A stretch of 23,542 nt of DNA from a virus (lineage: Duplodnaviria > Heunggongvirae > Uroviricota > Caudoviricetes): IMG/VR virus record IMGVR_UViG_643348547_000006; one strand, written 5' to 3'. The notes under the pieces are model-generated. The model was not told the DNA's origin, did no database searches, and saw only the letters and a list, made by a program, of their open reading frames with translations. Each line of letters begins with the position of its first letter. Position 1 is the first letter of the stretch. Made by a program: the position numbers and the translations under genes. Positions 1,893 through 20,314 of this stretch are shown here, piece after piece.

Positions 1893-4800
1893 GCGTCGTA
1901 TCCCCCCTGATCGCTGTAGTTACTCCTGGCTTTTGCCTTCAGCCTGCGTTCACGTTCATCAAGCTGGCGTGCCACCTCCCGCGCAATATCCTGCGCACTT
2001 TGTCCTGGCTGCGTCTGAATAATGATCTGCGTCGGTGCCTCAATCCGTTGAACGAGCGGCACAGTGGCTGCGCGACTCACAATTGCTTCTCCACCTTTCG
2101 CGGGAAGTGCCAAAGGGTGCAACGGTGGAAGCTCTGCTGGCGCGGCAGCAACGCCCATCATTCCGGCAACAACGGCAGCCAGTGCAGCTGTATTTCTCCG
2201 GCTGGTCACATTTGCCGGGCCGTTAACAATTTCCGGCCCGTTTTCACCGACGATGCCAAACTGCCCTCGCGGGATATACCCGCCGCTGTCATACATCCCC
2301 GCAAAGCCATATCCCCATGATGGAAAACCACCCGATGGCATCATCACTTTACCGTCTGCATTCACCGTCGCAGGTTGCTGACGCGTCACGCTTTCCGGCA
2401 GTTTTGCCTTTGCGGCCTCTTTACTGACAATGCCGAGCTTCTCCAGCAACCAGGAAACGCCGGATTTCAGGGAGTCCAGCGGATGCATGACCATATTCAG
2501 CCCTTCCGCCAGTGCCTCCCCGAATCGCCGCCCCATTGCCGCTGCACTCTGCAGTTCGGCAGAGGTCGACTTAACGGGCGTCAGCAGATCAGTAAACCAG
2601 CCCCACAGCGCCTGTACTTTGTCGCCAATCCACTGAAACACAGGCTTAAGTGGTTCGAATGCAGCACTGATGGGACCTGCCGCCGCTTTGAATCCTTCCA
2701 CCACGCCACCGAGAAATGCGGTGATGGGTTGCCAGTATTTCCAGACAACCAGCGCCACGCCCGCCAGTGCAGTAACCACAAGACCTATCGGACTGAGCAG
2801 AGCACCTAACAGACCAGATATGGCATACAGGGCAACGCGCAGCATCGCCAGCGGACCAGATGCAAGCACACGAAGCACCGCGCCTGCGGCAGCCAGTCCA
2901 CCGCGCAGTACCGCCAGAGGATTCATAAACATCACAGCAACAGCACGTAAACCGGATAATCCAGACCGCAAAAGTGCAACCGGCGCACCTGCTACAGTTT
3001 TAAGGACATTTCCCGTCAGTGATGCCGTGCGGCGCAAAGACGACAACGGCGCAGTAAGTAAACCTGCGGCGTTGCCCGATGAAGCAAGCCCGCGTCGCAG
3101 CAGTGCCAGTGGTGCGCCAGCCAGCCAGGACAACGCGCTGCTGGTTCGAGTTACTGCTGCCGTAACGGAAGATAACGTTTTGATACCCAGCACAGAGAAT
3201 CCCAGACGGATCACTGCCAGCGGCCCCAGCACTGCAGCCAGCGCCACCGCTAAGGTGCCGAGGCCGACGGTAACCGCAGCCACAACAGCCGATGCTTTCA
3301 TCAGTGTGCCTGTCAGTTCCGGGTTAGCTTCCACCCAGCGACGCAACGCCCCCGTGACGCTTTTCACCGTGTACAGAATATCCATCAGCGGCTGGCGCAG
3401 CGTTTCGCCCAGGCTGCTGAAGGTGTTCTGCGCTCCGGTTTTGACCAGCAACCACTGCGCAGAAAGTGAATCCTTGTTAATGTCGGATTCTTTCTGCATG
3501 GAGCCGAGCGCATCATTGCCCGCTGTCAGTTTTAACTGACGCTGCAGTTCCGGCAGGTTGTTTGCCAGTTTCGCCGCGTCATCGCCAAACTCTTTACCAA
3601 ACAACATAGTCATGGCAGACAGGCGCTTGTCCTGCGGCAGCGCGTTTACCTTCTCCAGCACGCGCTGGATGGTTCCCATCGCATCCTTCGTCATCTGCTT
3701 TTCAATCACTTCAGGATTGAGTTTCAGCAGATTCATCCCTTCAAAGAAACTTTTGCTTTGCATGGTGGCAATGGACAATTCACACACCATCGCGTTTGCT
3801 GCACTGGCTGCAACCTCTGGCGCAGCGCCCAGTGTCAGGAAGGTGGAACCCAGCGCCGCCGCTTTACGATAATCCAGACGGTCAGCCACACCGCCCAGAC
3901 GTTGCATCACATCAATGATGTCTGCCCCTTTCGACATGGCGTTATCATCCAGATAGTTCAGCGCATCACCGAGCTGTTCAATATTGCGGGTGGGGATTTT
4001 GTAGAGCTGGGCGATTTTCCCCAGACTTTCTGACAGTTCATCCGCTGGCAGCTCAAAGGCTGTTGCCGCCTTTGCTGCCGTACTGGCGAAGGCCAGCAGG
4101 TCACGTTTCTGATCTTCCCAACTGTCGTCAGGGTTTGCGACGTTCATGCGCGCGCCACCTTCAACCAGTGCAGCGAAATCCACAGCACCGTTTTCCATCG
4201 GCAACTGTTCGCTGGCAGCCTTGATGGCATCCTGCATTTCATAAAAACGTGCAGTGCGGTTGCCATTATCGTCACGCAGACCATTGACCTGCTTTGCCAC
4301 ACCTTTCATGGCATCTTCCATGCTGGTATAGCTTTTTACTGCCGCCATCACTGGTGCGCCCATTGCCAGCCCTGCAGCCGTGGTGGTGGCTCCGGCACCT
4401 GCAATACGATCACGCACCTCCAGCGAACGGGCATAACTGGCACGCGCTGCATTCATCCTGCGCTGAGCTTCCCCCAGTCGCTTCAGCCGCGCCTCCTGTT
4501 TCGAAAGTTCCTGGTTATAACGTGATGTTTCACGGGCTAAACGGGCAGTTGCTCCCGCATCGTCTTTCGCAGAAATTCCCGCCCGGTACAGTTCAGCACG
4601 CACAAGCGCCGTCTGCTGCTGCAGCTTTTTCTGGCGTTCTTCCAGGCGCTGAACAGCCAGCCGTTGACGGCCCAGAGCAACAACCTGACGTTGCGAAGGC
4701 GGCCCCATCGCTCCCAGTTCCTGACTGAGCAAATTTGCACGCTGGCGGGCATAGTTCAGCCTGTCGCCTAATTTCTGATTTTCTGCCTGCAGCTTTCGGA

Positions 4801-7308: not shown

Positions 7309-8128
7309 GGCACTGTTGCAAAGTTAGCGATGAGGCAGCCTTTTGTCTTATTCAAAGGCCTTACATTTCAAAAACTCTGCTTACCAGGCGCATTTCGCCC
7401 AGGGGATCACCATAATAAAATGCTGAGGCCTGGCCTTTGCGTAGTGCACGCATCACCTCAATACCTTTGATGGTGGCGTAAGCCGTCTTCATGGATTTAA
7501 ATCCCAGCGTGGCGCCGATTATCCGTTTCAGTTTGCCATGATCGCATTCAATCACGTTGTTCCGGTACTTAATCTGTCGGTGTTCAACGTCAGACGGGCA
7601 CCGGCCTTCGCGTTTGAGCAGAGCAAGCGCGCGACCATAGGCGGGCGCTTTATCCGTGTTGATGAATCGCGGGATCTGCCACTTCTTCACGTTGTTGAGG
7701 ATTTTACCCAGAAACAGGTATGCAGCTTTGCTGTTACGACGGGAGGAGAGATAAAAATCGACAGTGCGGCCCCGGCTGTCGACGGCCCGGTACAGATACG
7801 CCCAGCGGCCATTGACCTTCACGTAGGTTTCATCCATGTGCCACGGGCAAAGATCGGAAGGGTTACGCCAGTACCAGCGCAGCCGTTTTTCCATTTCAGG
7901 CGCATAACGCTGAACCCAGCGGTAAATCGTGGAGTGATCGACATTCACTCCGCGTTCAGCCAGCATCTCCTGCAGCTCACGGTAACTGATGCCGTATTTG
8001 CAGTACCAGCGTACGGCCCACAGAATGATGTCACGCTGAAAATGCCGGCCTTTGAATGGGTTCATGTGCAGCTCCATCAGCAAAAAGGGATGATAAGTTT
8101 ATCACCACCGACTATTTGCAACAGCGCC
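7309..8128 (-). mobile_element. IS26-like (IS6 family) insertion sequence, copy 1, 820 bp, no target-site duplication
   Basis: Terminal 14-bp repeats GGCACTGTTGCAAA (7309-7322) and, on the other strand, GGCGCTGTTGCAAA (8115-8128); encodes the Tnp26-like transposase. Flanking octamers differ (CATTGATC vs AAAAGCGG). Confidence 0.9.
7361..8065 (-). CDS. tnp26: IS26-family DDE transposase
   Basis: 234 aa from MNPFKGRHFQRDIILWAVRWYCKYGISYRELQ..., recalled as Tnp26; ATG at 8063-8065. Translation is identical to the copy-2 transposase. Confidence 0.9.
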   Translation of the reverse strand: MNPFKGRHFQRDIILWAVRWYCKYGISYRELQEMLAERGVNVDHSTIYRWVQRYAPEMEKRLRWYWRNPSDLCPWHMDETYVKVNGRWAYLYRAVDSRGRTVDFYLSSRRNSKAAYLFLGKILNNVKKWQIPRFINTDKAPAYGRALALLKREGRCPSDVEHRQIKYRNNVIECDHGKLKRIIGATLGFKSMKTAYATIKGIEVMRALRKGQASAFYYGDPLGEMRLVSRVFEM

Positions 8129-9277
8129 AAAAGCGGCACCGTTGCATTTCAGCCAGCCTGTTGGCGGAGTGGCTGAAGGCCACGGAACAGGCACCCCAAC
8201 CGGTAATGCAGAGCCTTCTCCCAAACCAAGGTATGTGAGAAGACCAGCTACATCCTTTCCACTCAAATTGGTAAGCGTATTGTCCAGCGGTTGTTTACCT
8301 GCCAGCGCATTAAGCATTGTCGTGGCAAAGTTCGGATCATTCCCCAGTGCCACCGCCAGTTCGTTCAGTGTATCCAGTGCAGCAGGTGCAGAACCCACCA
8401 TTCCTGCAATCGCCGATTTCACAAAAGCCGTAGTGGCAATCTGTGTATTGTTGACCGACTGCGCCGCCGTGGGGGCTGTTGGCGTTCCGGTGAGTGCCGG
8501 ACTCGACAACGGTGCTTTTAGTGCCAGCGCATTGTTAATGGTGGTACTGAAATTCGGATCATTGTTAATGGCTGCGGCTATTTCTTTCAGCGTGTCCAGC
8601 GTGGCTGGCGCACCATTAATAAGGGCCGTCAGTGCCGCCTGTACAAACGCAGTGGTCGCAACCTGCGTGGTATTATTCCCCGCCGCTGGCGTTGGCGCTT
8701 TGGGGGTTCCGGTAAATGTCGGGCTGGCTTTTGGCGCGTACTGTGAATGCGGGTCCGGTGCGGCAAGATGTTTTGCCATCTGATCATCCGCGTACACCTT
8801 CAGCTCCAGTGCCTTGTCATCCACATACTTGCGGGTTGCCAGCACTACAGCAGGGTCGATTTTCAGGGTGATATTGTCCGTGCTGCTGGTAATCAGCACC
8901 ATGCGCACGGTCTGAGTGCGCCCGCTACCTTCAGCCAGTTGCGGCTTATAGCTTTCCGGGCAGTTGCCCACGGCAATCAATGCACCTGACTCATCAAACA
9001 GGCCCACTTCACGTATCCACCAACCGCCCTCGTTTTCAGGGATCACCTGTTCGGCAATAATCTGGCTGCTGTTCTGCGGGTCGATATAAAGCATATTCAG
9101 CGCAGCCCGGCGTTTCTCATTTACCAGTGCCGTCTGCTTTGCGTCCGGCGTTGGCAATACTCCACCGCCATCGCCCACCGCCATATGGGTAATTTTTAGC
9201 GGCACACCGAGCGCGGCGGCGCTGGCAAGTTTCGCCGCGCCAATATCCGTCAGCAGGGTATAAAATTTTGTGCTCAT
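8129..9277 (-). pseudogene. H: Tail fibre protein gpH, 3'-truncated by IS26
   Basis: ORF 8102..9277 has a P2 H-like N-terminus (MSTKF...MAVGDGGG...ESYKPQLAEGSGR...) and reaches ...PVPWPSATPPTGWLKCNGAAF; its last 8 residues (GAVANSRW) and stop are encoded by the IS26 end. About 380 aa remain versus roughly 670 aa in P2 H. Confidence 0.8.
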
Positions 9278-11126: not shown

Positions 11127-11701
11127 ACCGGGCCTCCGGTTGTATCGCCGCCTTTCAGGACGCCAGTATGCTGATGCGCATCAACCACGATCCCGTTAGA
11201 ACTCATCGCTCCGCCGCCCTGGGTAACGCCACCATTGATCACCACTTCGCTGTTAATGCGCGTGCGGTCAGCCTCCAGTACAAACTCACTGGTTTTCATG
11301 GTGATGTTGTCAGCAGCCTCAATGACCATTGATTTGATGCCCCTGACATACCAGCGCCCGGTGGCGGGTTCGTATTCAAACCAGCCACCGTCAGGATGTT
11401 CTGTCACGCAGGCGTCCGCCGACGTCGACGGTGGTGCGAACTGATTCGAATAGACAGCGGGCAGCGCAAAGGCGGTTTCCAGATTGCCGCCCAGACTCAG
11501 CAGCACCACCTGCTCACCTTCCGATGGTCGCCACCATGTACGGGCATTCCCGGCACGCAGCGTCAGCCAGCTGATCCAGTTGGTTTCAAGCTCGCCCGTT
11601 TTCACCCGGCAAAGCCAGTTTTCCCTGTCCACTTCGGTGACTACCCCTGTGCGGATCAGGTTGGTGATAAGGCGCATGATTTCGGTTAATTGTGCGTTCA
11701 T
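11123..11701 (-). CDS. V: Baseplate spike/hub protein gpV
   Basis: 192-aa ORF; strong resemblance to recalled P2 V (N-terminal IRTG..TE.D, C-terminal HxH...GGxTxGP). Confidence 0.85.
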   Translation of the reverse strand: MNAQLTEIMRLITNLIRTGVVTEVDRENWLCRVKTGELETNWISWLTLRAGNARTWWRPSEGEQVVLLSLGGNLETAFALPAVYSNQFAPPSTSADACVTEHPDGGWFEYEPATGRWYVRGIKSMVIEAADNITMKTSEFVLEADRTRINSEVVINGGVTQGGGAMSSNGIVVDAHQHTGVLKGGDTTGGPV

Positions 11702-11746
11702 AGGGAAAGGTTGCCATCAGGGGAAGAAAGGCGGCAGTGCTGCAAC

Positions 11747-11766
11747 TTGTATCAGTGCTGATACAA
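11747..11766 (-). promoter_or_regulatory. Palindrome TTGTATCAG-TG-CTGATACAA in the S-V intergenic region (candidate Ogr site or hairpin)
   Basis: Perfect 9-bp inverted repeat with 2-nt spacer at 11747-11766; also fits TTGT-N12-ACAA; centred 55 bp upstream of the V ATG. Confidence 0.35.
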
Positions 11767-11769
11767 AGA

Positions 11770-12216
11770 TCACCCCGCCAGCCATTGCAGAATCATGTCG
11801 CGGGTCATTGCCTCAACATCATCATTTACACCCAGAAGGCGACGCTCTGCGTAACGCACCTCCGGTCCCTTACGACTGACGCGATCTCGCAGGCCGTAAT
11901 GGTGAACGCGGGCAATGCGCTGCACCTTGCCTTCAAACTGCACGCTGGCAGAGTCGGCGCTGGCGGAAGTTTTCAGGTATTTTGTGGTGCGCAGCTTTGC
12001 AAACATCTGACGTTTGATACGGCCTTTTTTACTGCGTGCTGTTACCCGTCGCGGTTCATAACTGCTGCCATCTGGATTGCGCTGCATTCTGATATTTTGC
12101 TGCTGTGTCCGGCGTAGTTCCTGCGCCAGCTGGCGCATCATGCGGCTTCTTGCGGCTGGCTCCAGATTCGCCAGCAAGGCACTCAGCCAGTCGTCCACTT
12201 TCTGCAGTTCAGCCAC
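11770..12216 (-). CDS. S: Tail completion protein gpS
   Basis: 148-aa ORF (AELQKVDDWLSALLANLEP...) resembling P2 S; the ORF's first codon is GTG (12214-12216); exact start uncertain. Confidence 0.75.
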   Translation of the reverse strand: MAELQKVDDWLSALLANLEPAARSRMMRQLAQELRRTQQQNIRMQRNPDGSSYEPRRVTARSKKGRIKRQMFAKLRTTKYLKTSASADSASVQFEGKVQRIARVHHYGLRDRVSRKGPEVRYAERRLLGVNDDVEAMTRDMILQWLAG

Positions 12217-12640
12217 GTTTCACCGTCCACATTTCTTCAGGTTCATCAGGTTCCGCTATAGCTTCAACGCTCGACACACTGCCGTCAGTGCTGACCAGCA
12301 CACGCTCCGTCAGTTGCAGGTTGAGGCTGATATCACAGACATCGTTGCGCAGAATATCCACCTCAAAGGTGAATAGCTTTTCCCGTAACGCCGGGTTATT
12401 GATGGCATCGGGCTGGTTATCACGCAGCCACAGCAAAACCGGGGCCATCAGCAGATTCTGGTCGCCGCTGAAATCCTCAATCACCACGTTCAGGGTGTAG
12501 CGGTACTCCCATGACATGGAGCTGGCCCCCGTGGCAACCAGCGAACCGTTATCCACAAACAGATGCAGTTTGTCCGGGTTATTGCGGACATAAGGCACCG
12601 CTTTATTGAGGGCGTGGCGCAGGGATTGTGGTTTGTTCAC
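12209..12640 (-). CDS. R: Tail completion protein gpR
   Basis: ORF 12209..12661 begins with TTG; a GTG at 12638-12640 preceded by AGGAG 8 nt upstream gives an N-terminus (M)NKPQSLRHAL similar to P2 R (MLKPDSLRRAL). Confidence 0.7.
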   Translation of the reverse strand: MNKPQSLRHALNKAVPYVRNNPDKLHLFVDNGSLVATGASSMSWEYRYTLNVVIEDFSGDQNLLMAPVLLWLRDNQPDAINNPALREKLFTFEVDILRNDVCDISLNLQLTERVLVSTDGSVSSVEAIAEPDEPEEMWTVKRG

Positions 12641-12893
12641 TGTTTCGCTCCTGACACGCAATAATCATGTCCACTTTGTCTGCACAGACCGCCCAGGCGG
12701 CCTCCGTTTCATCCAGCAACGCATTCAGATCACCGTTAGTGCGCGGTGCTGCCTGCTCCAGCCGACACGGCGTCACTCGCGGACAACCACTGACGGTAAG
12801 CTGCACCTCCGGTGAGTGCCGGACGTTCCCGCAGCCGGATAATGTCAGCAGGCAAAGGAGTATCAGCCCAGTGGCGTAAATCCTCGTTCTCAC
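12603..12893 (-). CDS. lysC: Outer-membrane spanin lipoprotein (LysC/Rz1-like)
   Basis: 96-aa ORF with a signal peptide and lipobox (LLCLLTLSGC) and a Pro-rich C-terminus; starts inside lysB in another frame and extends into R, as P2 lysC does; GTG start with GAGGA upstream. Confidence 0.7.
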   Translation of the reverse strand: MRTRIYATGLILLCLLTLSGCGNVRHSPEVQLTVSGCPRVTPCRLEQAAPRTNGDLNALLDETEAAWAVCADKVDMIIACQERNSEQTTIPAPRPQ

Positions 12894-13164
12894 GTTTCAG
12901 TTCCTCGATCCGGCGTTGTCGTTGTCTCAGCTGTGCGCTGGTCTGTTCTGCTTCGGCATAGAGCCGCGCCTGCTCCCGGTTATTGGTTTCAGTCAGAATG
13001 GACAGGCTGATAAGCTGGCTGTTGCTCTTTGCCAGTGCCTGGCTTTTGCTCTGCAGCTCGTTTGCCTGCGTGCTGATGGTCTGGCTGGCATCAGCCAGCC
13101 GCCACGTCTGCCAGCCCAGCGCCGCTAGTAATAACGCCAGCACAACCAGCAGCAACCGGTTCAT
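12736..13164 (-). CDS. lysB: Inner-membrane spanin (LysB/Rz-like)
   Basis: 142-aa ORF with an N-terminal transmembrane segment (LLLVVLALLLAALGW) followed by a charged coiled-coil-like region; ATG 13162-13164. Confidence 0.75.
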   Translation of the reverse strand: MNRLLLVVLALLLAALGWQTWRLADASQTISTQANELQSKSQALAKSNSQLISLSILTETNNREQARLYAEAEQTSAQLRQRQRRIEELKRENEDLRHWADTPLPADIIRLRERPALTGGAAYRQWLSASDAVSAGAGSTAH

Positions 13165-13538
13165 GCTGCTACCTGTTGCGCCATCTGATTACGGGTGATC
13201 CAGAAGGCAATAACGGTCAGTAGATAAAAGACCAGGGTAATAGCCCACCCCGTCCATGCGAGACTTACAACAATCAGCAATCGCATCACCCAACTGATAA
13301 ATACGTTTTCTTTTCGGGTAATTGTCTTCAGCAAAGATGCCCTTAACTCCTGCCAGAGCGGGCCATTCTGAATTAACGCAGCCAGTGCTACCGGAATTAC
13401 CGCCCATGTCAGCAAACAGGCTACCCAAACGCCGGACGCTGCCAGTACCGGAAAGATCCCCTGCGGATACACCATTGCTGCGATTAACAGCGCCATCCAT
13501 AACATCAGAAACAGTCCGCTGATTAATTTCTTTTTCAT
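13161..13538 (-). CDS. lysA: LysA-like multi-pass membrane lysis-timing protein
   Basis: ORF 13161..13610 begins with GTG; the ATG at 13536-13538 (MKKKLISGLF...) with GGGAG upstream gives a 125-aa protein with 3-4 hydrophobic segments. Start choice uncertain. Confidence 0.6.
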   Translation of the reverse strand: MKKKLISGLFLMLWMALLIAAMVYPQGIFPVLAASGVWVACLLTWAVIPVALAALIQNGPLWQELRASLLKTITRKENVFISWVMRLLIVVSLAWTGWAITLVFYLLTVIAFWITRNQMAQQVAA

Positions 13539-13539
13539 T

Positions 13540-14052
13540 TCAGTTTGCTCCCTGTAAACACCAGGCCATCTCCCGCGCACGGCGGTTATCCAGCCCCTGA
13601 TTAAACACACCTTTTACATAAACCCAGCGCGGCAACTGTCGGCACGCATCCGCCCAGCGCCGCTGATTGAGCAATTTCACCAGCGTGGAGCTGCAGGCAT
13701 TGCCTGTCCCCACGTTGAAGGCAAACGACACCACCGAGTCATACACCTTTTGTGGCGGCTGTTGCTTCACACATCTTTCCAGCGCCCGCTCCACACGCAG
13801 CACGTTGGAGATAAGCCCTTCTGCTGCCTGTCGTTCCGTAATGGTTTTGCCGGGAATGACGCCCGACGTATTACCAATGCCGTCAGTCCATACACCCGCG
13901 CTGCACTGATAGGGCTGCAGACGACAGCCTTCGTAATCGGCAATCAGTTTCAGTCCCTCCACGGAGGTGTGAAGCTGCTGAAAACCCGGCAGCGTGGCAG
14001 CAATAGCCAGCACGGTCCCGACAAGGCAGCGTTTAACGATTGATGGATTCAT
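13540..14052 (-). CDS. K: SAR-endolysin-type lysozyme (GH24, P1 Lyz-like)
   Basis: 170 aa; N-terminal hydrophobic signal-anchor-release-like segment containing a Cys (KRCLVGTVLAIAATLPG), then EGCRLQPYQCSAGVWTDGIGNT, which closely matches the P1 Lyz active-site region as I recall it; ATG with GGGAGG upstream. Confidence 0.8.
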   Translation of the reverse strand: MNPSIVKRCLVGTVLAIAATLPGFQQLHTSVEGLKLIADYEGCRLQPYQCSAGVWTDGIGNTSGVIPGKTITERQAAEGLISNVLRVERALERCVKQQPPQKVYDSVVSFAFNVGTGNACSSTLVKLLNQRRWADACRQLPRWVYVKGVFNQGLDNRRAREMAWCLQGAN

Positions 14053-14248
14053 AGTCCTCCCGCGAGATCTGCCCGTCGCGCAGAAGCTGGTAGGCTTTGT
14101 GTTTGTAGTACCAGTTGATAGCCAGCATCAGCACACCAATCATCAGGCCGCCCAGCGTTGAGGCATCCTTGATGGACAAATCGCCCAGCCAGACCAGCAC
14201 AACGGCGATGCAGTACGTGATAAAGGCGCTGATTCGCTCAAGCGTCAT
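14033..14248 (-). CDS. Y: Holin (class II / pinholin-like, two transmembrane segments)
   Basis: 71 aa with two hydrophobic segments and a charged C-terminus; sits immediately upstream of the endolysin and overlaps it by 20 nt. Confidence 0.65.
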   Translation of the reverse strand: MTLERISAFITYCIAVVLVWLGDLSIKDASTLGGLMIGVLMLAINWYYKHKAYQLLRDGQISREDYESINR

Positions 14249-14251
14249 AAT

Positions 14252-14455
14252 TCAGTCCCATAGCTGGACGGTCTGCACGGTGGTGGTTGTCGGAATGTCC
14301 GGCAGCTCCACCTGCAGCCCGTGAGGTAAAAAGGGGCCATATTCGGCAAGCCCCGGATTTGCCTTCAGTACCTGCTCCGTGACACCCTGCGTGCGCCCGT
14401 AATGACGCCAGCAAAGCGCGTCCACCGTGTCATACTGATGCGCACGCACTTTCAT
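14252..14455 (-). CDS. X: Tail protein gpX
   Basis: 67-aa ORF, same size and position as P2 X; ATG overlaps the L stop (ATGA). Confidence 0.7.
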   Translation of the reverse strand: MKVRAHQYDTVDALCWRHYGRTQGVTEQVLKANPGLAEYGPFLPHGLQVELPDIPTTTTVQTVQLWD

Positions 14456-14919
14456 CAGATAAGCTCCACTGTGCAGTGCGGCGCGTCCTGTACCCGGCTG
14501 ATGGCCCAGCGGGCGTCACGCCATAAATCACCGCTGGCTTCCGCCAGTTCCTCGCCCCGCTTCACACCGGATGCCGTGGCGTCATAGTCCTGGTAACGTT
14601 CGTTGAGCATGGCGCGTGCCCAGCAGTAAACCGCGTTGAAATAGTGCTGAATGCGCTCACTTTTGCCGTCCAGCTGTTCCGCCGGAACCTCTGCCAGCGA
14701 GGCATACCCCAGCATCTGCTGGCATCTGCGAAACTCATACAGCTCTGCGTTGACCTCCGAAATTGCCGACAGCGCAACCTGCTTTAAACGCGGCTGCGTC
14801 ACCGTACCGTCAGTGCGCATCACACTGCGGAACTCCGACAGATCCACATCAGGCCAGAACGGCGTATTCCTGATGATTTCCGCCTGTTCCGGTGCCTGTT
14901 CTGGCGCAACAAACTTCAT
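14455..14919 (-). CDS. L: Head completion/stabilisation protein gpL
   Basis: ORF 14455..14982 begins with GTG; the ATG at 14917-14919 (MKFVAPEQ...) has AGGAGA 8 nt upstream. Internal region (IRNTPFWPDVD..., ELWRD.RWA) resembles P2 L. Confidence 0.8.
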   Translation of the reverse strand: MKFVAPEQAPEQAEIIRNTPFWPDVDLSEFRSVMRTDGTVTQPRLKQVALSAISEVNAELYEFRRCQQMLGYASLAEVPAEQLDGKSERIQHYFNAVYCWARAMLNERYQDYDATASGVKRGEELAEASGDLWRDARWAISRVQDAPHCTVELI

Positions 14920-15014
14920 GCTGCTTTCTCCTGAGATAGAGGGCGGTGGACGGGGTTTTGATGTGGCAGTGCCTTTCGCCACCCCGTGCCGCCCGTGCGC
15001 GGGGGCACGTTCTG

Positions 15015-15665
15015 TCAGCGGCTGTCATTGCGCAGTCTGCGCTCCAGCTGCTGTTTGTCTTTTTTCACGCCACAGCGGGGATCGAGCTGTAACGCATGGT
15101 TGAGATGATTAAGGGCGGAAGCCGGATTACTTTCACTCAGGACAGCGCCAATCGCTTTATGCAGACGCGCCCGTGACTGGTCCGGCATGTCCAGACCGTC
15201 TGTCAGCTCCAGCGTCTGCAGCAACAGATCGACATCAAAGCCGGTAGTGGCAAGCATTGCGCTCTGTGCCGCGTCTGCCATTTCCTCTGCCAGCACGGTT
15301 TGCACATTGCGGTTACCCAGCGGCATCACCCAGCCATGACGCAGGGCATGACGCCCGATCTCCAGCGCCCCGGCATAATCTCCGGCATCAATGCGCCACA
15401 GCATCACGTACATCAGCACGTCATCCTGTTGAGCGCCTCCGGCAGCCAGAACACCCTCTGCCCAGGCGGCGTATTTCGGCAGCAGCTCCACCTTGATTTC
15501 CGCTTTTTTGACCGTGGACTGAACGCCCTTGAGACGGCGGCGATCTTCCGCCAGTTGCAGCAGCATCAGGTCATAGCCCGACGCGTGGCGAACGCTGCCG
15601 CCCTCACGGGCGGCCTGTTCAGCCTGAACGCGCAGGCGATGCTGCCGTGCGGGACTCAGGCTCAT
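15015..15665 (-). CDS. M: Terminase small (endonuclease) subunit gpM
   Basis: 216 aa; N-terminal and central similarity to recalled P2 M (QDD.LM.VMLWR.D.GD.AGALEI...); ATG 15663-15665. Confidence 0.8.
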   Translation of the reverse strand: MSLSPARQHRLRVQAEQAAREGGSVRHASGYDLMLLQLAEDRRRLKGVQSTVKKAEIKVELLPKYAAWAEGVLAAGGAQQDDVLMYVMLWRIDAGDYAGALEIGRHALRHGWVMPLGNRNVQTVLAEEMADAAQSAMLATTGFDVDLLLQTLELTDGLDMPDQSRARLHKAIGAVLSESNPASALNHLNHALQLDPRCGVKKDKQQLERRLRNDSR

Positions 15666-17719: not shown

Positions 17720-18826
17720 ATGAACACCACACTGACACCCGCAGATCTCGATCCCCGTCGGCAGGCCATGCTGCTGTACTTTCAGGGATACCGCGTAGCC
17801 CGCATTGCTGAAATGCTGGGCGAGAAAGTTGCAACCGTTCACAGCTGGAAAAAACGCGACAAGTGGGGTGACTATGGGCCGCTGGATCAGATGCAGCTCA
17901 CCACCGCCGCACGCTACTGCCAGCTCATCATGAAGGAGCACAAAGAAGGGAAAGATTTCAAAGAGATTGACCTGCTGGCGCGCCAGTCGGAGCGCCACGC
18001 GCGGATCGGCAAGTTTAACAATGGCGGCAACGAAGCCGACTTAAACCCTAACGTCGCCAACCGCAATAAAGGCCCACGCCGTCAGCCGGAAAAGAATGTT
18101 TTCACCGATGAGCAGATTGAGAAGCTGGAAGAAATCTTCCATTCCTCCATGTTCAACTACCAGCGCCACTGGTGGGAAGCCGGAAAAACCAACCGCATCC
18201 GCAACCTGCTGAAGTCACGCCAGATCGGCGCGACCTTTTACTTTGCCCGTGAAGCCCTGATTGACGCCCTGCTTACCGGACGTAACCAGATTTTCCTTTC
18301 CGCCAGCAAGGCACAGGCCCACGTCTTTAAGCAGTACATCATCGACTTCGCCAAAGAAGTGGGGGTGGAGTTGAAAGGCGATCCGATGGTGCTTCCTAAC
18401 GGGGCCACGCTTTACTTCCTCGGCACCAATGCCCGCACGGCCCAGAGTTATCACGGCAACCTGTATCTGGATGAATATTTCTGGATACCGAAATTCCAGG
18501 AGCTGCGCAAAGTGGCTTCCGGTATGGCTATTCACAAAAAATGGCGACAAACCTATTTTTCCACGCCATCCAGCCTGACACACAGTGCTTATCCGTTCTG
18601 GTCCGGTGCGCTGTTCAACCGTGGGCGCAACAAGGCCGACAAGGTGGACATCGACCTGTCCCACAGCAATCTGGCCCCCGGCCTGCTGTGCGCAGACGGG
18701 CAATACCGCCAGATAGTCACCGTGGAAGATGCGGTGCGCGGCGGCTGTAACCTGTTCGACCTTGACCAGTTGCGCATGGAGTACAGCCCGGACGAATACC
18801 AGAACCTGCTGATGTGCGAGTTTGTG
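17720..18826 (+). pseudogene. P: Terminase large (ATPase) subunit gpP, 5' portion, interrupted by IS26
   Basis: ORF 17720..18853 reads about 369 codons of P and then 8 IS-encoded codons (GAVANSRW) before a stop inside the IS26 end. Confidence 0.85.
18819..18826. repeat. 8-bp target-site duplication AGTTTGTG (left copy) of IS26 copy 2
   Basis: Identical octamer immediately flanks both ends of the 820-bp element. Confidence 0.85.
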
Positions 18827-19646
18827 GGCGCTGTTGCAAATAGTCGGTGGTGATAAACTTATCATCCCTTTTTGCTGATGGAGCTGCACATGAACCCATT
18901 CAAAGGCCGGCATTTTCAGCGTGACATCATTCTGTGGGCCGTACGCTGGTACTGCAAATACGGCATCAGTTACCGTGAGCTGCAGGAGATGCTGGCTGAA
19001 CGCGGAGTGAATGTCGATCACTCCACGATTTACCGCTGGGTTCAGCGTTATGCGCCTGAAATGGAAAAACGGCTGCGCTGGTACTGGCGTAACCCTTCCG
19101 ATCTTTGCCCGTGGCACATGGATGAAACCTACGTGAAGGTCAATGGCCGCTGGGCGTATCTGTACCGGGCCGTCGACAGCCGGGGCCGCACTGTCGATTT
19201 TTATCTCTCCTCCCGTCGTAACAGCAAAGCTGCATACCTGTTTCTGGGTAAAATCCTCAACAACGTGAAGAAGTGGCAGATCCCGCGATTCATCAACACG
19301 GATAAAGCGCCCGCCTATGGTCGCGCGCTTGCTCTGCTCAAACGCGAAGGCCGGTGCCCGTCTGACGTTGAACACCGACAGATTAAGTACCGGAACAACG
19401 TGATTGAATGCGATCATGGCAAACTGAAACGGATAATCGGCGCCACGCTGGGATTTAAATCCATGAAGACGGCTTACGCCACCATCAAAGGTATTGAGGT
19501 GATGCGTGCACTACGCAAAGGCCAGGCCTCAGCATTTTATTATGGTGATCCCCTGGGCGAAATGCGCCTGGTAAGCAGAGTTTTTGAAATGTAAGGCCTT
19601 TGAATAAGACAAAAGGCTGCCTCATCGCTAACTTTGCAACAGTGCC
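18827..19646 (+). mobile_element. IS26-like (IS6 family) insertion sequence, copy 2, 820 bp, with 8-bp target-site duplication
   Basis: Ends GGCGCTGTTGCAAA (18827-18840) and TTTGCAACAGTGCC (19633-19646). Transposase and antisense-ORF translations are identical to copy 1 up to the element boundary. Confidence 0.9.
18890..19594 (+). CDS. tnp26: IS26-family DDE transposase
   Basis: 234 aa from ATG 18890-18892; identical translation to copy 1. Confidence 0.9.
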   Translation: MNPFKGRHFQRDIILWAVRWYCKYGISYRELQEMLAERGVNVDHSTIYRWVQRYAPEMEKRLRWYWRNPSDLCPWHMDETYVKVNGRWAYLYRAVDSRGRTVDFYLSSRRNSKAAYLFLGKILNNVKKWQIPRFINTDKAPAYGRALALLKREGRCPSDVEHRQIKYRNNVIECDHGKLKRIIGATLGFKSMKTAYATIKGIEVMRALRKGQASAFYYGDPLGEMRLVSRVFEM

Positions 19647-19654
19647 AGTTTGTG
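19647..19654. repeat. 8-bp target-site duplication AGTTTGTG (right copy) of IS26 copy 2
   Basis: Matches 18819-18826 exactly. Confidence 0.85.
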
Positions 19655-20314
19655 GACGATCTCGCGTCCGTATTTCCGCTCAGCGAGCTGCAGGCGTGCA
19701 TGGTGGACAGCTGGGAAGTCTGGACCGACTTTCATGCACTGGCTCTGCGCCCGTTTGGCTGGCGCGAAGTGTGGATCGGTTATGACCCGGCAAAAGGTAC
19801 GCAAAACGGCGACAGCGCCGGATGCGTGGTGGTGGCACCGCCAGCCGTGCCTGGTGGTAAGTTCCGCATTCTTGAGCGTCACCAGTGGCGCGGGATGGAC
19901 TTCCGCGCCCAGGCTGACGCCATCAAAAAACTGACCGAACAGTACAACGTGACCTATATCGGTATCGACTCAACCGGCGTTGGTCACGGGGTTTATGAGA
20001 ACGTGAAAGCGTTCTTTCCTGCCGTCCGGGAGTTTGTCTACAACCCCAATGTTAAAAACGCCCTGGTACTCAAGGCCTACGACATTATCAGCCACCGCCG
20101 TCTGGAGTTTGACGCCGGGCACACCGACATTGCGCAGTCATTTATGGCAATCCGTCGCGCTACCACTGCCAGTGGCAACCGCCCGACCTATGAAGCCAGC
20201 CGCAGCGAAGAAGCCAGCCATGCCGATCTGGCCTGGGCAACAATGCACGCACTGTTTAACGAACCGCTGCAGGGCGAGTCCGCCAATACCAGCAATATTG
20301 TGGAGATTTTTTGA
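19647..20314 (+). pseudogene. P: Terminase large subunit gpP, 3' portion
   Basis: Removing the IS and one duplication copy restores a continuous frame ...LLMCEFVDDLASVFPLSELQ...; stop TGA at 20312-20314 overlaps the Q ATG. Confidence 0.85.

Follow-up and report, generated by a model that had tools for sequence, protein, structure and literature searches.

A putative class II holin, caged SAR endolysin and P2-type spanin lysis cassette in a Wadgaonvirus-like prophage

The DNA analysed here, which we refer to as the window, is a stretch of 23,542 nucleotides from a virus of the Caudoviricetes (IMG/VR record IMGVR_UViG_643348547_000006), and on its minus strand the genes X, Y, K, lysA, lysB, lysC and R follow one another in this order, seven in all and closely packed. 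The genes between X and R make up a lysis cassette, and the interval from 12603 to 14248 spans exactly the segment from the stop codon of lysC to the start codon of Y. A preliminary description of this interval, made from the letters alone, had proposed a cassette of the pinholin plus signal-anchor-release (SAR) endolysin type with an embedded spanin pair. All of the features that it named are present on the minus strand at the positions given below, and a SAR endolysin with caging of the P1 type is supported by homology; the spanin genes, however, are overlapped rather than embedded, and the gene lysA had been overlooked. The features are as follows.

14033-14248, minus strand: Y, 71 residues, ATG start; class II holin of the HP1 family (PF16080)
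13540-14052, minus strand: K, 170 residues; GH24 muramidase, predicted SAR endolysin of the P1 Lyz type (PF00959)
13981-14028, minus strand: predicted SAR segment of K, residues 9-24, CLVGTVLAIAATLPGF, containing Cys9
13885-13932, minus strand: catalytic and predicted caging motif of K, E41-G-C43-x6-C50-x5-T56
13161-13538, minus strand: lysA, 125 residues, four membrane segments; lies between K and lysB
12736-13164, minus strand: lysB, 142 residues; predicted inner-membrane spanin (i-spanin; TIGR03495)
12603-12893, minus strand: lysC, 96 residues, GTG start; predicted outer-membrane spanin (o-spanin) lipoprotein (NF038368)
12831-12842, minus strand: lipobox of LysC, L18-S-G-C21, a sequence motif
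14252-14455, minus strand: X, tail/baseplate gene forming the upstream flank (PF05489, E-value 2.2e-34)
12209-12640, minus strand: R, tail completion gene forming the downstream flank (PF06891, E-value 5.7e-48)

Neighbouring genes run into each other at several points. The 3′ end of Y overlaps the start of K by 20 nt, lysA and lysB are joined by an ATGA overlap, and the 3′ end of lysC overlaps the start of R by 38 nt, R beginning with a GTG at 12640 that is preceded by an AGGAG Shine-Dalgarno sequence. A scan of positions 11500-15200 for promoters and terminators gave nothing clearly over shuffled expectation. Over positions 12200-14500 the window has 99.5 % nucleotide identity to Escherichia phage 500465-1 (Peduoviridae, Wadgaonvirus; NC_049342) and about 97 % to Klebsiella phages 4LV2017 and KP12, with an identical gene order in each, and we read the cassette as the late-operon lysis module of a prophage of the P2 family (Peduoviridae, Wadgaonvirus-like). 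It is found in 1037 of 5426 complete Escherichia coli genomes (about one in five), several of the matches being at 100 %, and its products are named in RefSeq by the Prokaryotic Genome Annotation Pipeline (PGAP) as ‘HP1 family phage holin’, ‘lysozyme’, ‘DNZ54_00345 family protein’, ‘LysB’ and ‘LysC’. The related loci referred to below are a set of 31 complete loci from different Enterobacterales species.

The first gene of the cassette, Y, encodes a protein of 71 residues with two hydrophobic segments (residues 6-24 and 29-47) and a charged C-terminus. The size and the two segments had been recognized in the preliminary description, and hydropathy analysis finds two segments and not three; the scales used here and below (Kyte-Doolittle, and a Hessa-type scale) serve for relative ranking only. 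Y matches the PF16080 model of the HP1 holin family with 36.9 bits (cut-off 28.8) and the phrog_20 holin family with an E-value of 4.5e-26. The preliminary description had also named an alignment to the phage 21 holin S21 as a check. When a Y-family profile is compared with S21 using hhalign both segments are covered (E-value 9e-5, probability 59 %), the S21 sequence having been checked solely by its 122-bit match to PF04971, the phage 21 S family, but Y itself misses the PF04971 cut-off. By sequence, Y is thus best described as a distant relative, and not a member, of that family.

The genomic company that Y keeps is uniform. A K homologue follows directly after Y in all 31 related loci, and every Y relative found, in these loci and in further phages, directly precedes an endolysin with a SAR-like N-terminus. 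The further phages are Yersinia phage YenM_06.16-2, Erwinia phages EtG and ENT90, E. coli phage Midge, Dickeya phage BF25/12, the lambdoid phage YenM_21.09 and HP1, and the lineages represented outside the 31 loci are Duonihilunusvirus, Eganvirus, Entnonagintavirus, an autographivirus, a lambdoid Yersinia phage and HP1. HP1 Hol and HP1 Lys have been characterized experimentally as a pinholin and a SAR endolysin, Hol killing cells without release of β-galactosidase and being needed for lysis with Lys (PMC7312051). By analogy with HP1 Hol, we somewhat favour the view that Y is a pinholin.

Several properties of Y weigh against that view, and some of them fit a second reading, in which Y would be a canonical large-hole class II holin that still triggers K by depolarization, as P1 LydA does with Lyz. 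Canonical holins, such as P1 LydA and LydC, do serve SAR endolysins (PMC9025707; PMC6116005). The score of Y against PF04971 is 22.5 bits, under the cut-off of 26, and the match is limited to residues 21-54. The first transmembrane domain (TMD1) of Y is strongly hydrophobic and not SAR-like, with a Kyte-Doolittle value of 2.04 and 26 % small residues, which makes it comparable to the stable membrane anchor of LysB. TMD1 of S21, a segment that must exit the membrane, falls under the same hydropathy threshold that TMD1 of Y exceeds. Y is also without a dual-start antiholin form, an in-frame TGA lying two codons upstream of its start, and in direct comparison it is barely similar to HP1 Hol (BLASTP E-value 0.29; hhalign probability 3.8 %). 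This pairwise similarity was rejected as evidence as being too weak, and the placing of Y in the HP1 family is made because of the Pfam model match and not because of pairwise similarity.

Y also has a weak pairwise match (BLASTP E-value 3e-5) to the P2 holin, the partner of a soluble endolysin, over TMD2-3. This match would likewise suit a large-hole holin, but we rejected it after profile comparison failed to sustain it; that comparison favours S21 (59 %) over P2 Y (2.6 %). Nor does any Y relative stand beside a soluble endolysin in about 38 loci drawn from several phage lineages, and the absence of β-galactosidase release by HP1 Hol, to whose family Y belongs, likewise speaks against large holes (PMC7312051). 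We regard the large-hole reading as possible but doubtful.

The same two properties, a TMD1 that looks too hydrophobic to exit the membrane and the lack of a dual-start antiholin form, suggest another variant, in which the Y family is triggered by a topological mechanism other than that of S21, with the optional LysA perhaps taking over the regulatory part that falls to TMD1 or the dual start in phage 21. We think this unlikely; it would echo the unusual N-in/C-out active topology that has been reported for HP1 Hol.

We note that the holin genes of Eganvirus and Yersinia relatives (loci L039-L041, around positions 2195-2210) have a dual start, MGL(K/T)M, resembling the one in phage 21 S, because an ATG lying in the final codons of X (CTATGGGACTGA) shares their reading frame. 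The corresponding part of the window (14246-14262) is spaced differently: here the ATG at the end of X does not share the frame of Y, which is left with one start only.

The product of K matches the Pfam family Phage_lysozyme (PF00959) with an E-value of 2.7e-39, and the GH24 triad Glu-x8-(Asp/Cys)-x5-Thr is present in it as E41, C50 and T56. Its best solved relative is P1 Lyz (PDB 1XJT; E-value 5.7e-26), followed by other GH24 enzymes that include the SAR endolysins R21 and DLP12 RrrD, and no similarity to the soluble K of P2 was detectable. K thus aligns best with P1 Lyz and not with soluble lysozymes, as the preliminary description had led us to expect, and the N-terminal hydrophobic segment with Cys9 that it pointed out is present. 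The protein begins with MNPSIVKR followed by CLVGTVLAIAATLPGF, such that K7-R8 precede a stretch of 16 uncharged residues including Cys9, of which Gly, Ala, Ser and Thr make up 44 % (counted by hand). In hydropathy scans no 19-residue window of K is over the insertion threshold, whereas the true transmembrane domains of LysA and LysB pass it, and the K segment scores weaker than every true membrane segment of the cassette. Such a low score is as expected for a SAR segment; the soluble K of P2 has no N-terminal segment of this kind.

Downstream of this segment, K contains the sequence E41-G-C43-RLQPYQ-C50-SAGVW-T56, which is exactly the pattern E-G-C-x6-C-x5-T that had been likened to P1 Lyz in the preliminary description. 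In a multiple alignment that took in P1 Lyz, HP1 Lys and five distant representatives, the columns holding K Cys9, Glu41, Cys43, Cys50 and Thr56 are invariant and correspond to P1 Lyz Cys13, Glu42, Cys44, Cys51 and Thr57. The five residues are kept in 31/31 related loci, as indeed are all seven cysteines of K, while the residues beside Cys9 are variable. Given the strength of the P1 Lyz match and the invariance of these cysteine, glutamate and threonine columns, the motif reflects homology and not chance. A structure prediction of K points the same way: the AlphaFold model (predicted local distance difference test score, pLDDT, 94.8) has as its best fold match the active form of P1 Lyz (1XJT; template modelling score, TM, 0.86, with the N-terminal segment included), compared with a TM of 0.58 to inactive P1 Lyz (1XJU), and its residues 11-26 are packed on the enzyme body with pLDDT >95, like those of active P1 Lyz. 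As far as sequence and homology go, there is good support for identifying K as a SAR endolysin that is caged by a disulfide in the manner of P1 Lyz.

Two observations count against it. About 20 representatives that have no membrane segment at their N-terminus share the pattern E-G-C-x6-C, and cleavage of K by signal peptidase is possible by sequence, SignalP having called a signal peptide for HP1 Lys (PMC7312051). Because of the segment-less homologues, the two motif cysteines alone do not prove caging, and we rejected E-G-C-x6-C-x5-T by itself as proof of it; the diagnostic feature is instead the third cysteine, that within the SAR segment. Among representatives clustered at 50 % identity, a cysteine lies inside the N-terminal segment in 22 of the 24 that have the caging cysteine, the catalytic cysteine and a membrane segment, and when these are regrouped the ratio is, by our own count, about 13 independent lineages to 2.

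These figures bear on whether K might be exported by a SAR segment and yet be regulated sterically like phage 21 R, its cysteines having catalytic or structural roles only. In favour of this, the motif pair is common in homologues that have no membrane segment (the 20 representatives above) and so predates, or is independent of, SAR regulation, but the third cysteine in the membrane segments of the surveyed representatives and a K triad positionally identical to that of P1 Lyz argue against it, and we judge steric regulation of K to be quite improbable. Least probable of all, in our estimation, is that the N-terminus of K is a cleavable Sec signal peptide and K a secreted periplasmic lysozyme restrained by the energized membrane without tether or thiol switch, on the model of the secreted periplasmic lysozyme Lys44 of Oenococcus phage fOg44: the 16-residue hydrophobic stretch after K7-R8 and the small residues that follow (A16-I-A18-A19) are signal-peptide-like, and there is the SignalP call for the homologous HP1 Lys, but Cys9 is invariant in 31/31 loci amid varying neighbours and aligns with the functional Cys13 of P1 Lyz, and the packing of residues 11-26 on the enzyme body in the model is unexpected for a discarded peptide.

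Ahead of the lysA ATG, the same reading frame stays open over a further 24 codons (13539-13610), across the 3′ end of K, and dozens of K-LysA fusion proteins of 277-296 residues are present in the protein database, nearly all of them as singleton clusters. A genuine K-LysA fusion, or a programmed frameshift, was considered and rejected, as the junctions differ in the three 296-residue sequences inspected and nearly all are singletons; the fusions look like sequencing errors or decay (frameshift products).

LysA has four hydrophobic segments and no enzyme domain. It matches phrog_162 (E-value 1e-43) and NF038378 (122.9 bits), and it has weak similarity to the C-terminus of P2 LysA (E-value 0.002), which likewise has four membrane segments. 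The P2 database record gives lysA as non-essential and as affecting lysis timing, and the depositors of phage Midge label its LysA homologue a putative antiholin. A homologue of the window LysA was detected in only 12 of the 31 related loci, and in most of those without one lysB follows directly after K, which indicates that the core system works without LysA. We take LysA to be a putative antiholin or lysis-timing factor similar to P2 LysA and an optional module. RefSeq phage records and phrog_162 label it ‘endolysin’. In a Citrobacter pasteurii locus (L036, about 3710-4080) the slot between K and lysB is filled by about 370 nt dissimilar to the window lysA, and this may be a different accessory gene.

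The spanin genes are homologous to those of P2. LysB scores 174 bits against TIGR03495 (phage_LysB; cut-off 92.75), matches phrog_89 with an E-value of 5.6e-46 and is 33 % identical to P2 LysB; a transmembrane domain at residues 3-21 is followed by a coiled-coil periplasmic domain. LysC scores 124 bits against NF038368 (P2_Rz1; cut-off 27), matches PF23793 with an E-value of 1.5e-15 and is 41 % identical to P2 LysC over its full length, the N-termini being MRTRIYA and MRTKIFA respectively. Cys21 is invariant, and the lipobox reads LSGC or LAGC in 28/31 loci, the three remaining loci having LPGC or LCGC; the GTG start, the length and the frame of lysC are conserved across the 31 loci. The match to P2 LysC from residue 1, together with this conservation, fixes both the GTG start and the lipobox.

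It had been correctly noted that lysC, with its lipobox, starts inside lysB in another frame and runs into R, but the term embedded that was applied to the pair does not hold. An embedded o-spanin gene lies wholly within the i-spanin gene, as typified by lambda Rz/Rz1, whereas in the overlapped architecture, typified by P2, it starts inside the i-spanin gene and ends past its stop (Kongari et al., PMC6139136). In the window lysC begins 271 nt into lysB, in the +1 frame, and extends 133 nt beyond the lysB stop codon, and the architecture is therefore overlapped and not embedded. From their homology and arrangement, LysB and LysC are predicted to form a two-component spanin of the P2 type with the overlapped architecture. 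The o-spanin is annotated with 38 residues in RefSeq record NC_049342 (locus L001, 1904-2020) and with 57 residues in KP12 (locus L002, 1904-2077); both annotations begin downstream of the signal peptide and lipobox, and the conserved open reading frame (ORF) is 96 residues long from the GTG.

The gene structure, family membership, conserved residues and synteny described above are directly observed, and from these we infer how K is exported and caged, how large the holes are and what LysA does in a cassette that very probably comprises a holin (Y), a caged SAR endolysin (K) and LysB/LysC spanins, with LysA as an optional modulator of timing. K would be exported via the host Sec system, and its N-terminal SAR segment, weakly hydrophobic and left uncleaved, would hold it at the inner membrane. 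In this tethered state it would be caged, since a disulfide to Cys43 would lock up the catalytic Cys50. Meanwhile Y, as a class II holin with two segments, would accumulate in the inner membrane until, at a set time, lesions form that collapse the proton-motive force, and these lesions would most likely be small pinholes. On depolarization the SAR segment would exit the bilayer and Cys9 would attack the Cys43-Cys50 disulfide, giving a Cys9-Cys43 disulfide; with Cys50 freed, the SAR segment would refold on the catalytic domain and the K muramidase would degrade the wall. LysB, as the inner-membrane i-spanin, and LysC, as the outer-membrane lipoprotein o-spanin, would then disrupt the outer membrane. 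As in P2, the four-segment membrane protein LysA would probably adjust the timing of these events, and it would be dispensable.

Cassettes of this type are already known: experiments document them in HP1 and P1, the close relatives KP12 and Midge are annotated accordingly, and RefSeq gives the genes their names in about 1000 E. coli genomes. The value of the present analysis is mainly one of annotation, in that the o-spanin should be given as 96 residues from the GTG in place of the 38- and 57-residue versions, and the second ‘endolysin’ is the membrane protein LysA. Of some further interest is the regulation of a class II holin whose TMD1 is very hydrophobic and which has no dual start.

Outside the lysis genes, the prophage has been altered by insertion of IS26. 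An 820-bp copy at 18827-19646 interrupts the terminase large-subunit gene P (17720-20314) and is flanked by an 8-bp target duplication, AGTTTGTG; when the element and one duplicate are removed, an intact ORF of 588 residues for gene P is restored. With gene P interrupted, the prophage, to judge from its sequence, is probably unable to package DNA. A second, identical copy of IS26, inverted and lacking a target duplication, lies at 7309-8128, up against the 3′ end of an ORF of 391 residues (8102-9277) in the tail-fibre position. This location suggests that the distal tail-fibre gene and the gene for fibre assembly have been deleted. The second copy would probably also explain the many matches of ≥99 % to Shiga toxin (Stx)-converting phages and to records named as Acinetobacter. 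A contig of 3226 bp (JAEWTL010000006.1; locus L004), binned with a metagenome-assembled genome named ‘Bacillota bacterium’, contains X, Y and the beginning of K, which are 97-100 % identical to the enterobacterial prophage, and has probably been mis-binned.

The closest known systems are those of phages 500465-1 and KP12, whose cassettes have essentially no sequence difference from that of the window; it is the public annotations that truncate the o-spanin and label LysA ‘endolysin’. The KP12 endolysin has already been modelled as P1 Lyz-like (TM-align 0.83 to 1XJT) with its SAR domain noted, and the KP12 spanins have been called P2-type overlapped, although the homologue of Y was not settled on as a pinholin (PMC9902359). 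Midge, which we group with Erwinia phage EtG (Eganvirus), is a P2-like phage whose depositors annotated a class II holin, SAR endolysin, putative antiholin, i-spanin and o-spanin, and its endolysin has the same cysteine triad as K, but its holin is only about 27 % identical to Y and has the dual-start motif MGL(T/K)M, which Y lacks.

Haemophilus phage HP1 (Peduoviridae, Hpunavirus) resembles the window in its PF16080 holin, in the overlap of hol with lys and in the LysB-like gene that follows. HP1 Lys, which is 34 % identical to K, is also P1 Lyz-like, with a cysteine in the SAR segment and the pattern E-G-C-x6-C-x5-T. The two systems differ in that TMD1 of HP1 Hol is weakly hydrophobic whereas that of Y is strongly so, and in that the HP1 cassette is located elsewhere in the late region and has no LysA. 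P1 Lyz is the best match of K in both sequence and fold and shares the five key residues, although the identity is about 35 % and some 11 additional residues are inserted in P1 Lyz behind the FNxG motif. The lysis genes of P1 are dispersed, and Lyz works with the holins LydA, LydC and LydD and the antiholin LydB (PMC9025707).

S21 of phage 21 and Y are alike in having 71 residues and two segments and in each being coupled to a SAR endolysin; their TMD2 sequences align well (LGGLMIGVLMLAINWYYK in Y and LGSLVLGFLTYLTNLYFK in S21), and both have an N-terminal (E/D)(R/K)IS..I.Y motif. TMD1 of Y is, however, six residues shorter and much more hydrophobic, and Y has no dual start, while R21 differs from K in being regulated sterically and not by disulfide exchange and in having Asp in place of Cys in its catalytic triad. 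In P2, finally, the cassette likewise lies between X and R, LysB and LysC are homologous to those of the window with the same overlapped +1 architecture, and a four-segment LysA occupies the same slot, but P2 Y is a three-segment holin of 93 residues (PF04550) and P2 K is soluble and unrelated in sequence. The holin and endolysin pair is thus swapped as a module relative to P2, an instance of modular exchange within the Peduoviridae in which a class II holin and a SAR endolysin replace the three-segment holin and soluble endolysin of P2 while the spanins stay homologous.

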